From sequence record PV656001.1: DNA of 44,456 nucleotides; one strand, written 5' to 3'. The stretch is from Escherichia phage vB_Eco_ORH_001. The position numbers were made by a program, and so were the translations under genes. This document shows positions 15,749-17,628 of this stretch, in pieces; within the stretch, counting starts at the first letter, position 1, and each line of letters starts with the position of its first letter. The notes under the pieces were generated by a model, which was given only the letters and a program-made list of their open reading frames with translations, was not told the origin of the DNA and did no database searches.

Positions 15749-15777
15749 TTGCACACCCCAACATAATAGGATACTAT
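15749..15777 (+). promoter_or_regulatory. sigma70-like promoter TTGCAC-N17-TACTAT with operator AATAGGATACTATT (15765..15778) over the -10
   Basis: Near-identical to the reverse complements of the sites at 37334..37362 and 35562..35590; followed by the leader tacaccaacaat and the ATG at 15819. Confidence 0.6.
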
Positions 15778-15818
15778 TCACTTACACCAACAATGTTAAC
15801 TCAAACAGGAGCTACCCC

Positions 15819-16010
15819 ATGACAGGTATTACTATGTTCTTCTTAATCATTATCGTTTTAGTTTATTTTATCCCATTTCTCGTGGCGCATATGCGCAACC
15901 ATAAAGCTAAATTAGCGATATTCATGGCTAATCTGTTTCTCGGTTGGGTTCTGCTGCCGTGGGTATTTATTTTAATCTGGGCGTGCAACTCGAATGTCAA
16001 AGAGAAGTGA
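15819..16010 (+). CDS. small two-TM membrane protein resembling superinfection-immunity (Imm-like) proteins
   Basis: MTGITMFFLIIIVLVYFIPFLVAHMRNHKAKLAIFMANLFLGWVLLPWVFILIWAC: two hydrophobic helices with R/H/K between them, as I recall for the Imm-like family; no search run. Confidence 0.55.
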   Translation: MTGITMFFLIIIVLVYFIPFLVAHMRNHKAKLAIFMANLFLGWVLLPWVFILIWACNSNVKEK

Positions 16011-16049
16011 GCTAGTATAGGACAAATCCTAAACACGAGGAAGTAAAGC

Positions 16050-17180
16050 ATGGCTAATAAGAAAATAACCGACGAACAGTTACAGGAAGAATTGAACGCC
16101 GGGATGAAGAATGTAGACATCGCCCGTAAATACGGCATCTCAGACCGCGTTATTCGTATCCGTAAAGCGAAGCTGGCTAAGAAAGGCGTAGGCCACGGGC
16201 GCGACGTTAGTCACCTCGTCCCGGACGGCTACAAGATTAAAGGCACGTCGTCACTTGTGGATGAGTTCGGCAACACTAAGTTGCAATGGGTTAAGACAGA
16301 CACCGACGCTGAACGTCAGGTCGAGTTGATGAAAGCCGTAATCGAAGGCATGAAGTCGGAGATTACCCCCGTTGCCCCTGTTAAAGCCGTTCGCGCCAAA
16401 CGCGACGACAAGCTACTCAATCTTTACACGGTATCGGATTTTCATCTCGGTATGCTGGCCTGGGCTGACGAGAGCGGTGACGACTGGGATATGAAAATCG
16501 CGGAAGCCCTGTTTTATCGATGGTTCGATGCTGCGTTTCAGAAAGCACCGGACGCGGGCGCAGGAGTTATTAACCTGCTTGGGGACTTCGCCCATTTCGA
16601 TAGTCTTGACGCCGTTACCCCCGAGTCGCGCAATGTATTAGACGCTGATACTCGCTATCAGAAACTGGTACGCTACATGATTCGTATGGTGCGCCGTGTT
16701 GTCGATATGGCGCTAGTCAAACACGGGACTGTGAAACTTCTTGTCGTACAGGGGAATCACGACCCTGTGGGCTCTGTGTGGCTGGCGGAGATGTTCAGTA
16801 CGCTGTACGACAATGAGCCTCGTGTGCTCGTCGATACGTCGCCGGATGTTTACAAGATGGTGCAACACGGAAAAACGACGTTGTTCTTTCACCACGGGCA
16901 TAAAGCACGATTCGACGCTATCGAGCCGGTTATGATTGCCAAGTTCCGCAAAGCGTTCGGCGAGAGTGTTTACAGCTACGCCCACGTAGGCCACCTGCAC
17001 CACCAGAAGATTGTGGAAAGCCGTAACATGATTGTTGAGCAGCACCGCACCCTGGCGGCTAAAGACGCCTACGCCTCTCGCGGCGGATGGATGTCAGGCC
17101 GTAGTGCAAACGTAATTACTTATAGCGCCGAATATGGCGAGGTCGCACGTTTAACTATTTCACCGGAGATGCTGGGATGA
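16050..17180 (+). CDS. calcineurin-like metallophosphoesterase with N-terminal HTH-like domain
   Basis: Phosphoesterase motifs in order: SDFHLG, LGDFAHFD, QGNHDP, FHHGH, GHLHH; N-terminus NVDIARKYGISDRVIRIRKAK looks HTH-like. Confidence 0.75.
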   Translation: MANKKITDEQLQEELNAGMKNVDIARKYGISDRVIRIRKAKLAKKGVGHGRDVSHLVPDGYKIKGTSSLVDEFGNTKLQWVKTDTDAERQVELMKAVIEGMKSEITPVAPVKAVRAKRDDKLLNLYTVSDFHLGMLAWADESGDDWDMKIAEALFYRWFDAAFQKAPDAGAGVINLLGDFAHFDSLDAVTPESRNVLDADTRYQKLVRYMIRMVRRVVDMALVKHGTVKLLVVQGNHDPVGSVWLAEMFSTLYDNEPRVLVDTSPDVYKMVQHGKTTLFFHHGHKARFDAIEPVMIAKFRKAFGESVYSYAHVGHLHHQKIVESRNMIVEQHRTLAAKDAYASRGGWMSGRSANVITYSAEYGEVARLTISPEMLG

Positions 17181-17377
17181 AAGACATGTATGAATGCACC
17201 GATGTGAGTCCGTACGCGGAGAAAAATGGATTCGAAGTAGGCGCTGTATATAAAGGGGTCACCCTAGAGAACGGCGACGTAAGAATGTATTCGCCTAAAT
17301 ATCGCAGCTTCTTTGAAATAGGCAACATTAACGAATCAGGCATAGCCCGATTTAAGAGAGTTAACAGTGACAAATAA
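17177..17377 (+). CDS. hypothetical protein (66 aa)
   Basis: ATGA overlap with the phosphoesterase stop; part of the island operon. Confidence 0.45.
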   Translation: MKDMYECTDVSPYAEKNGFEVGAVYKGVTLENGDVRMYSPKYRSFFEIGNINESGIARFKRVNSDK

Positions 17378-17597
17378 ATACAACCGTACAATGACAAACA
17401 CTCACGGCAGCACTATGACTGTAGACGTTTATGATGTGCTTCGTGCTTTCGACATCCGCGACCCGGCGCTACAGCACGCATTGAAGAAACTGCTGTGCAT
17501 GGGCTTGCGTGGTCACAAGGACACTGGAACAGACTTAACGGAAGCAATTGAAAGTCTGGAGAAGTTACGAGAGTACAGGAGTAACATTGATGAGTAA
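17367..17597 (+). CDS. hypothetical protein (76 aa)
   Basis: GTG start with GAGAG upstream; stop directly precedes terminator 17598..17628. Confidence 0.4.
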   Translation: MTNKYNRTMTNTHGSTMTVDVYDVLRAFDIRDPALQHALKKLLCMGLRGHKDTGTDLTEAIESLEKLREYRSNIDE

Positions 17598-17628
17598 GAA
17601 AAAGGCCCCGAAAGGGGCCTTAGTTTTA
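17598..17628. terminator. bidirectional rho-independent terminator, near-identical to 5411..5440
   Basis: aaaaaggcccc-gaaa-ggggcctt-agtttta; lies between the convergent island operon and the minus-strand ORF 17626..18258. Confidence 0.7.

Follow-up and report, generated by a model that had tools for sequence, protein, structure and literature searches.

A conserved non-structural gene cassette among the tail genes of a Kagunavirus phage: probably a DNA-metabolism gene with exchangeable accessory neighbours

The window analysed here is the whole stretch of 44,456 nucleotides (nt) from Escherichia phage vB_Eco_ORH_001 (PV656001.1), a phage of the Kagunavirus group within the Guernseyvirinae. 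Between its tail assembly chaperone gene and its tail tube gene, both read from the minus strand, lies an island of four open reading frames (ORFs) on the plus strand, spanning positions 15819 to 17597 and coding for proteins of 63, 376, 66 and 76 amino acids (aa). An earlier note on this DNA, made from the sequence alone, had described this rightward cassette with its own promoter and a bidirectional terminator, and had proposed it as an undescribed system that might serve superinfection exclusion or anti-defence. The arrangement of the four genes was confirmed, although that note had left out a minus-strand gene for an HNH endonuclease on the right side of the island. The claim of novelty did not survive. 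Region 15600-17750 is 100% identical to the corresponding part of Escherichia phage vB_Eco_Hrm2 (PV656002.1, 44,455 bp), of which the window is a rotated reverse complement, and that record already labels the island genes as 'superinfection immunity protein', 'DNA repair exonuclease' and two hypothetical proteins. DNA matches to the same region were found in 443 phage records, chiefly Salmonella Jersey-like and E. coli K1G-like phages, and its identity to many Kagunavirus genomes is 86-93%. The promoter motif and the terminator are likewise annotated or published for phage fBC-Eco01, and the public annotation of hundreds of Kagunavirus and Jerseyvirus genomes already covers the cassette with its Imm gene, promoter motif and terminator.

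To survey the interval in relatives, 50 IMG/VR contigs sharing the non-coding stretch beside the island were collected, and the genes from the chaperone to the tail tube were mapped. Complete intervals numbered 26, this window included. The earlier note had proposed to check whether the interval is empty in related phages; the 376-aa gene was present in 25 of the 26. What surrounds this gene is far more variable. The position upstream of it (slot 1) in the 25 occupied intervals carries the Imm gene in 19, a gene for an unrelated 108-aa protein in five, and nothing in one. On the downstream side, 17 of the 25 intervals with the 376-aa gene have the 76-aa gene, and only 3 of the 26 have the 66-aa gene. 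Other downstream contents are an HNH_3 endonuclease (4 intervals), a Rha/antirepressor-like protein (6 intervals) and, after the 376-aa gene in 8 of 25 intervals, a HAD-type PNKP phosphatase (PF25109, E 8.7e-20), next to which a 184-aa P-loop ORF was found in both of the two such intervals examined. In these two (contig L032, 2187-3229, and contig L040, 2335-3374, in oriented extracts), the phosphatase and the P-loop ORF replace the 66-aa and 76-aa genes; together, they look like a split polynucleotide kinase/phosphatase behind the metallophosphoesterase gene.

The single interval lacking the 376-aa gene belongs to a more distant contig (L047, IMGVR_UViG_2162886012_000023), with a chaperone 42% and a tail tube protein 66% identical to those of the window. 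Its interval is only 457 bp long and holds one small membrane-protein ORF (with a weak YebO-like match) and no metallophosphoesterase gene, and it keeps the leader described below together with the bidirectional terminator. At this transcript boundary, the interval acts as a permissive slot, in which the 376-aa gene is fixed in the Guernseyvirinae and the other positions are exchangeable. Base composition follows the same division: the G+C content of the 376-aa gene (0.50-0.54) is that of the backbone, whereas the segments with the Imm, small and HNH genes have less (0.43-0.48). Neither the BASEL completion paper nor a 2026 pattern-recognition preprint mentions the island genes. Features of the island, its flanks and the promoters compared with its own are collected in Table 1.

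Table 1. Positions of the island genes, flanking elements and dyad-bearing promoters in the window
Feature	Position	Strand	Remarks
Near-consensus promoter with dyad	2326-2354	rightward	upstream of methylase/helicase genes
Tail assembly chaperone gene	15225-15641	-	PF08748; left neighbour of island
int-alpA-like structured leader	15666-15730	-	Rfam RF02996; upstream of tail assembly chaperone
Predicted extended -10, TGTTAGAAT, for chaperone/tape-measure genes	15734-15742	-	back to back with island promoter
Island promoter, TTGCAC-N17-TACTAT	15749-15777	+	predicted from sequence; sigma-70 type, weak -35; 1-mismatch copy elsewhere
Operator-like dyad, AATAGGATACTATT	15765-15778		AATAG-N4-CTATT; overlaps island -10
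Imm-family protein gene, two transmembrane segments, 63 aa	15819-16010	+	exchangeable slot 1
Helix-turn-helix + metallophosphoesterase protein gene, 376 aa	16050-17180	+	anchor gene of cassette
Orphan protein gene, 66 aa	17177-17377	+	exchangeable slot
phrog_2452 protein gene, 76 aa	17367-17597	+	GTG start; phrog_2452 E 1.1e-36
Bidirectional intrinsic terminator, AAGGCCCC GAAA GGGGCCTT	17602-17621		A-run before, T-run after
HNH endonuclease gene	17626-18258	-	phrog_953 E 1.5e-70; between island terminator and second terminator-like site
Terminator-like site	18323-18298	-	terminator scan; just downstream of tail tube gene
Tail tube gene	18366-19538	-	PF18906; right neighbour beyond HNH gene
Leftward promoter, same class as island promoter	35562-35590	-	8/29 positions differ from island promoter
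Leftward promoter before small unannotated ORFs	37334-37362	-	1/29 positions differs from island promoter
Near-consensus promoter, TTGACA-17-TATAGT, dyad in spacer	40966-40994	+	upstream of exonuclease; 11/12 consensus positions
Near-consensus promoter with dyad	43279-43307	rightward	upstream of SSB/DNA polymerase; 11/12 consensus positions

The 376-aa protein belongs to PHROG 704 (E 1.4e-161), with residues 4-375 aligned to profile positions 2-389 of 390; the name of this family, 'DNA repair exonuclease', is an annotation. With tblastn, 2,036 phage records contained it, T1 ST16 and Rtp61 among them, from phages of Escherichia, Klebsiella, Salmonella, Vibrio, Campylobacter, Rhodobacter and Flavobacterium. 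A first homologue search gave only proteins at least 93% identical, and the diversity of the alignment used here comes from the search of representatives: an exhaustive search gave 4,588 cluster representatives, of which 1,111 scored below 1e-30. Among 54 diverse homologues, D130, H132, G178, D179, N236, H237, H282, G314 and H317 are invariant and H315 is nearly so. These residues make up the five metal-binding motifs of the metallophosphoesterases (DxH, GD, GNH(D/E), H and GHxH), so enzymatic activity is under selection.

The reading of this protein as a helix-turn-helix (HTH)-like domain fused to a metallophosphoesterase was thus borne out at the catalytic end, and its N-terminus agrees with it as well. 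In the AlphaFold model (pLDDT 93.2), three N-terminal helices (residues 8-43) are followed by a beta-hairpin plus helix (61-104) and then by the catalytic sandwich. An HTH is indicated weakly but repeatedly: GerE was matched with an E value of 0.0018, below threshold, and again in the Protein Data Bank (PDB) with an E value of 0.053, NCBIfam gave only a sub-threshold FixJ-type HTH (the FixJ C-terminal domain), and some sources name homologues 'winged helix-turn-helix'. The nearest folds of the model are nucleases, namely PolD DP1, SbcD and Mre11. A sequence and profile search of the PDB returned only weak HTH and SbcD/Mre11/metallophosphoesterase matches, those to SbcD and Mre11 having E values of 0.16-0.9.

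Gene neighbourhoods in other phages are consistent with a role in DNA metabolism. The T1 homologue, 44% identical, lies between the dam and lysis genes and is followed by an HNH gene, while that of Dhillonvirus Bas84 comes after the lysis genes and that of a Vibrio phage adjoins HNH and endolysin genes. In the temperate phage mEp021, the homologue lies between the gene for a replication or zinc-ribbon protein and that for the DnaB helicase. Metagenomic lambdoid-like contigs carry it after helicase/primase and just before the antiterminator Q gene, and another metagenomic contig has it together with Dam and dUTPase. These contexts, taken with the fold, point to a DNA-acting enzyme from an early or middle set of DNA-metabolism genes. 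Most likely, the protein would be a Mn2+/Mg2+-dependent DNA nuclease working in phage DNA metabolism. No experimental study was found in the literature. T5 A1 was also considered as a relative and rejected, as only a motif match of 19 columns was obtained, with a probability of 21%.

The profile and structure searches that the earlier note had suggested gave mixed returns for the three small proteins. The 63-aa protein matches Imm_superinfect (PF14373) with 51.8 bits against a cut-off of 27.9, and also phrog_1039, 'immunity to superinfection' (E 2.5e-23). It has two hydrophobic segments, at about residues 4-24 and 33-56 (Kyte-Doolittle windows of 19 residues scoring at least 1.6 cover residues 1-27 and 31-58, with HMRNHKAK between them), in agreement with its description as an Imm-like protein with two transmembrane segments. 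It was found in 370 phage records, almost all from the Guernseyvirinae, and the records of K1G, SETP7 and Ent1-3 label its homologue 'immunity to superinfection'. It probably blocks DNA entry of superinfecting phages. The 76-aa protein belongs to phrog_2452 and is present in 773 phage records from many host genera; profiles assigned no function to it, and its model (pLDDT 86) had no meaningful fold match. The public record starts this gene at 17391, giving 68 aa, and the GTG at 17367 gives an overlap of 11 nt with the 66-aa gene. As homologues conserve an N-terminal T-N-K-Y-N-R-T (an NKY.R motif), the GTG at 17367 should be the true start. The 66-aa protein had no match in Pfam, PHROG, NCBIfam or PADLOC and occurs in 25 phage records, all Kagunavirus, at an identity of at least 91%. 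PADLOC defence-system models gave no match to any of the four island proteins at E values up to 1.

The island promoter is nearly identical over about 40 nt to the leftward promoter at 37334-37362, and 100 shuffles yielded no comparable match. The assertion that it is a near-exact copy of the early promoters therefore stands for this one. It fails for the leftward promoter at 35562-35590, where the resemblance is limited to the -35, the -10 and the half-sites of the dyad. The island promoter is kept across Kagunavirus and is found in Jersey too, with a shifted register, and the GenBank record of fBC-Eco01 annotates it, before the Imm gene, as 'phage promoter3'.

The operator-like element AATAG-N4-CTATT, which had been pointed out before, is indeed far in excess: seven exact sites are present in the window against 0.04 expected. 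All of them lie at or near non-structural promoters and none of the seven precedes structural genes; the genes concerned are those for DNA polymerase/SSB, exonuclease and methylase/helicase, small leftward ORFs, and the island. Three of the seven dyads are in TTGCAC-type promoters (that of the island and two leftward ones before small unannotated ORFs), and three are in the spacer of near-consensus TTGACA-17-TATAGT promoters. The seventh, at 35887-35900 between two small leftward ORFs, has no evident -35 and is followed by a short hairpin on the minus strand. Throughout, the dyad overlaps the -10 or the spacer, at a distance to the -35 of 4 or 10 nt here and 7 nt in Jersey, where four exact dyads are found at homologous promoters, including that of the island. 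The T1 genome has no exact AATAG-N4-CTATT site. Such a placement would be expected of a binding site for a dimeric repressor-like protein.

The fBC-Eco01 paper described seven 'phage promoters' with the consensus tgAATAGTa-ccTATTat-T and assigned them to an RNA polymerase encoded by the phage (PMC9825357). The annotation of Hrm2 lists no such polymerase, and at three of the sites the promoter is of the sigma-70 type and close to consensus; for these reasons, host RNA polymerase plus a phage operator would be the better reading of the dyad promoters. As to the protein that might bind the dyad, an HTH_17/excisionase-type protein of 60 aa is encoded at 37782-37964 (+) in the rightward block, where the helicase-primase gene comes after it. 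Jersey has a version with 82% identity and T1 has none; the protein is a candidate dyad binder.

On the right side, the cassette ends at a terminator that was correctly described as bidirectional. Its stem has 8 pairs, 6 of them G-C, and was called on both strands; with its flanks, it folds at -22.3 kcal/mol (z = -4.7 relative to shuffles). The homologous site in the fBC-Eco01 record is annotated as a terminator on both strands, and T1 has a terminator directly after its major tail gene. Beyond the terminator comes the minus-strand HNH gene, which is present in only 2 of the 26 related intervals and is a probable homing-endonuclease insertion. HNH genes adjoin the homologue of the 376-aa gene also in T1, mEp021, a Vibrio phage and Jersey, and this recurrence suggests that homing endonucleases target the neighbourhood of this conserved gene.

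On the left side, the 80 nt from the chaperone start codon to the island promoter show higher conservation between Hrm2 and Jersey than do the genes on either side. This stretch was found in 482 phage records and is unannotated in most of those listed. It contains a predicted leftward promoter for the chaperone and tape-measure genes, whose extended -10 reads TGnTAGAAT in Kagunavirus copies and TGnTATTCT in the Jersey type, with TAAAAT in contig L047. The transcript predicted from it begins at the base of helix 1 of the leader, and the centre of the dyad lies about 44 nt upstream of this predicted start.

The leader matched the int-alpA RNA of Rfam (RF02996) over the full model with 34.2 bits, against a gathering score of 35.8 and with an E value of 0.0019 over the whole window, in which it was the only Rfam match at E values up to 0.1. 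The homologues of phiEc3 and fBC-Eco01 scored 36.6 bits (above gathering) and 32.5 bits, respectively, and Jersey-type copies gave no RF02996 match at E values up to 0.01. In an alignment of 14 distinct sequences, 99% of the cells in the three-helix structure are paired, and three pairs changed on both sides (13 cells), compared to none in all slid controls; the G-U pairs are compatible with the minus strand only. Since just two main lineages were sampled, this covariation probably reflects few independent events. The minimum free energy fold of the leader region alone was no better than those of shuffles (z 0.1), so the structure rests on the Rfam model and the covariation.

int-alpA RNA is usually associated with integrase and alpA genes. 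This association does not hold here, as no integrase is annotated in the public record of this phage and the element precedes a tail chaperone gene; the gene for the HTH_17 protein, an excisionase-type HTH, is about 22 kb away. Between the leader and the ribosome-binding site of the chaperone gene, UAACC occurs four times (at about 15650-15682, minus strand); these repeats are kept in Kagunavirus and Jerseyvirus, with one extra copy in contig L059. Taken together, the signals in this stretch suggest that the chaperone and tape-measure genes probably have their own transcription start and a structured leader.

Two further observations concern other parts of the window. The public record lists a 551-aa 'hypothetical protein' on the plus strand at 22885-24540, without a PHROG or Pfam match. 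It is antisense to a 349-aa ORF (22927-23976, minus strand) whose identity to an annotated gene of Jersey is 90%, and the Jersey counterpart sits on the structural-gene strand of the Jersey record. The 551-aa ORF is probably a shadow ORF, in which case the island would be the sole real plus-strand interruption of the late genes. A 76-aa protein with a DUF3850/ASCH domain, publicly labelled 'RNA-binding protein', is encoded among the small leftward genes, at 31148-31378 (minus strand).

How can these features be put together? We consider it rather probable that the cassette is a conserved non-structural unit of the Guernseyvirinae, made of a DNA-metabolism anchor gene with exchangeable accessory slots, and not one system. 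The four proteins have unrelated distributions (2,036, 773, 370 and 25 phage records for the 376-aa, 76-aa, 63-aa and 66-aa proteins, respectively), and the slots are swapped independently of one another; both facts speak against a single system. The unit occupies a natural boundary of transcripts, with the tail tube gene on one side and the tail chaperone genes on the other, and, most likely, host RNA polymerase would read it rightward from the sigma-70-type promoter whose -10 overlaps the dyad. Because the same dyad lies on the replication and small leftward promoters, one dimeric phage DNA-binding protein probably turns the cassette on and off together with them. The bidirectional terminator would stop both the cassette transcript and the leftward tail-tube transcript, and the separate leftward promoter with its structured leader would restart transcription of the chaperone and tape-measure genes.

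The anchor enzyme itself, with an HTH DNA-binding domain and an intact binuclear metallophosphoesterase, would serve replication, recombination or the breakdown of host DNA, as a core enzyme common to T1-like phages, Dhillonvirus and many others. A need for early or middle rather than late expression of this enzyme would explain why an early-type promoter is found among late genes. The upstream slot would take up an envelope protein, here an Imm-family protein of the inner membrane, and the downstream slots small genes.

Several points weigh against this interpretation. The -35 of the island promoter, TTGCAC, is weak, fitting the consensus at only 3 of 6 positions, and this is why the promoter is not called by a simple consensus scan. 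The matches of the enzyme to Pfam Metallophos and Metallophos_2 stay below the gathering score. The 66-aa and 76-aa proteins may be functionally linked to the enzyme, the latter accompanying it, as noted, in 17 of 25 intervals. Of the wiring to an early regulon that the earlier note had proposed, what stands is that the island promoter is of the same dyad type as the early and replication promoters; the word 'early', like the use of the promoter and the role of the operator in this phage, is read from the DNA sequence. RNA sequencing of Kagunavirus K1B4, the sole expression data found for a relative, placed the Imm gene in the temporal class of the DNA polymerase and the methylases, apart from the tail genes (PMC12645636), but the same study calls this class 'late', with a peak after 100 min (PMC12645636). 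As the latent period of K1B4 is 30 min (PMC12645636), re-infection may confound this label. The K1B4 data support a regulation separate from that of the tail genes, and they do not settle whether it is early.

A bolder possibility concerns the back-to-back promoters at 15734-15777, which could form an early-to-late switch operated by one protein. A small dimer bound to the dyad, either the HTH_17 protein or the HTH of the 376-aa protein, may close the island promoter and all the replication and early promoters, and the same protein, from about -44, may open the leftward promoter through the leader into the chaperone and tape-measure genes. Separately, PHROG 704 would be a new, widespread class of phage DNA nucleases with an essential role. 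We regard this combined proposal as unlikely; if true, it would give a function to an Rfam orphan RNA motif and a late-gene control to a large group of phages used in therapy.

The proposal of a single superinfection-exclusion or anti-defence module, made up of all four genes and wired to the early regulon, draws on several real features: the promoter and terminator of its own within late genes, a first gene of the Imm family, accessory genes richer in A+T than the backbone, and a slot 1 of envelope type throughout (Imm, the 108-aa protein with its hydrophobic N-terminus, or the small transmembrane protein of contig L047). However, the numbers of phage records for the four genes range from 25 to 2,036, the genes around the 376-aa gene are exchanged independently, and nearly every member of the group has this gene, which other phage families carry in replication or early regions; PADLOC recognised none of the four proteins. 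At most, then, the first gene, already annotated as such, would deserve the label, and we give the module as a whole only a slim chance.

As the 376-aa gene comes directly behind a dyad promoter, its product might instead be the regulator of the dyad regulon, its HTH binding AATAG-N4-CTATT to regulate its own gene and shut the early promoters. Between Hrm2 and Jersey, conservation is higher over the N-terminal 60 residues (68%) than over the catalytic part (49%), and the N-terminus has a weak match to phrog_836, 'late transcriptional activator', both of which would suit such a role. Yet T1 keeps the protein (44% identical) without having the dyad, so that a link between the HTH and the dyad through T1 is unsupported; the invariant catalytic residues show that enzymatic activity is selected; and the 60-aa HTH_17 protein, well conserved in Jersey and absent from T1 as the dyad is, fits better. 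A regulator is therefore doubtful.

Equally doubtful is a nucleic-acid end-repair unit, healing tRNA or DNA ends cut by host anticodon nucleases or restriction. The notion arises from the PNKP phosphatase that follows the enzyme in 8 of 25 intervals, with the P-loop ORF next to it in both examined, and from a 'polynucleotide kinase' annotated beside the homologue in Klebsiella and Shigella phage records. Moreover, the metallophosphoesterase domain of bacterial Pnkp is its 2',3'-phosphatase. This phage, however, has only the 66-aa and 76-aa proteins in the slot and no kinase or phosphatase partner there, no ligase turned up among the cassettes examined, phosphatases of both the HAD and the metallophosphoesterase type would duplicate each other, and the matches of the P-loop ORF are all below threshold.

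Finally, that the 376-aa enzyme is an anti-defence phosphodiesterase acting on the cyclic (oligo)nucleotide signals of CBASS, Pycsar, type III CRISPR or Thoeris, with the HTH in a regulatory or tethering role, is the least probable of all, for although cyclic-nucleotide phosphodiesterases share its fold (Rv0805 ranks among the best Foldseek matches, E 1.3e-7) and its expression is probably of early type, the earlier note's suggestion of cyclic-nucleotide anti-defence found no specific support, the enzyme having a DNA-binding domain, nucleases as its best structural neighbours, and homologues in replication, nin-like or lysis-adjacent early regions.

We therefore favour the non-structural unit with an anchor gene and exchangeable slots. 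What is left to learn about it is functional rather than structural, and concerns the PHROG 704 enzyme, the dyad promoters and the chaperone leader. Many of the Kagunavirus and Jerseyvirus genomes that carry the cassette belong to therapy candidates, and solving the dyad regulon, the leader and the enzyme would explain gene timing in this phage group. With its 2,036 phage records and 4,588 clusters, PHROG 704 is among the larger uncharacterised phage protein families. The role of the Imm gene bears on whether superinfection exclusion limits phage cocktails.

Among known systems, the cassettes annotated in other Guernseyvirinae (K1G, fBC-Eco01, Schulenburg and fFiEco03; Jersey, SETP7 and Ent1-3) come closest, with the same position, orientation, promoter motif and bidirectional terminator, and with the Imm, 376-aa and 76-aa genes in common. 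The difference lies only in slot contents, that is, the 66-aa orphan (25 records) and the minus-strand HNH gene (2 of 26 intervals). No published functional study of this cassette was found. T4 Imm resembles the 63-aa protein in its PF14373 membership (above gathering), small size, two hydrophobic segments and probable expression before the late genes; the island protein differs in having 63 aa and in coming from a siphovirus with a different DNA-delivery machine.

The 376-aa protein has about 11-17% identity to Mre11/SbcD and PolD DP1, which are binuclear metallophosphoesterase nucleases. With Mre11/SbcD there is no family match at the sequence level (PDB profile E values of 0.16-0.9, and no Pfam or NCBIfam family), and no Rad50/SbcC partner is annotated in the record, the adjacent ORFs coding for 66 and 76 aa (judged from annotation, with no dedicated profile search). 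Its N-terminal HTH and beta-hairpin/helix linker contrast with the C-terminal capping domain of SbcD/Mre11 and with the N-terminal part that DP1 has of its own. The protein stands in a distinct clade, PHROG 704. T5 A1 is linked to host DNA breakdown in the T5 record and has a local similarity at the GNHD motif (NHD..S.WL), but with 556 aa against 376 aa it is not a family member.

Lambdoid morons and T1 cor provide the remaining comparison. Like them, the island has, as read from the sequence, an autonomous promoter and terminator between structural genes, accessory genes of low G+C content, an envelope protein with a likely role in exclusion, and slot contents that vary among relatives. The moron traits of presence or absence and low G+C content apply to the Imm (19/25), 66-aa (3/26) and HNH (2/26) genes, whereas the 376-aa gene is found in 25 of 26 intervals with the G+C content of the backbone. 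In contrast to morons, the island is a multi-gene unit tied to the phage regulon, with an anchor gene that is near-universal and compositionally native.

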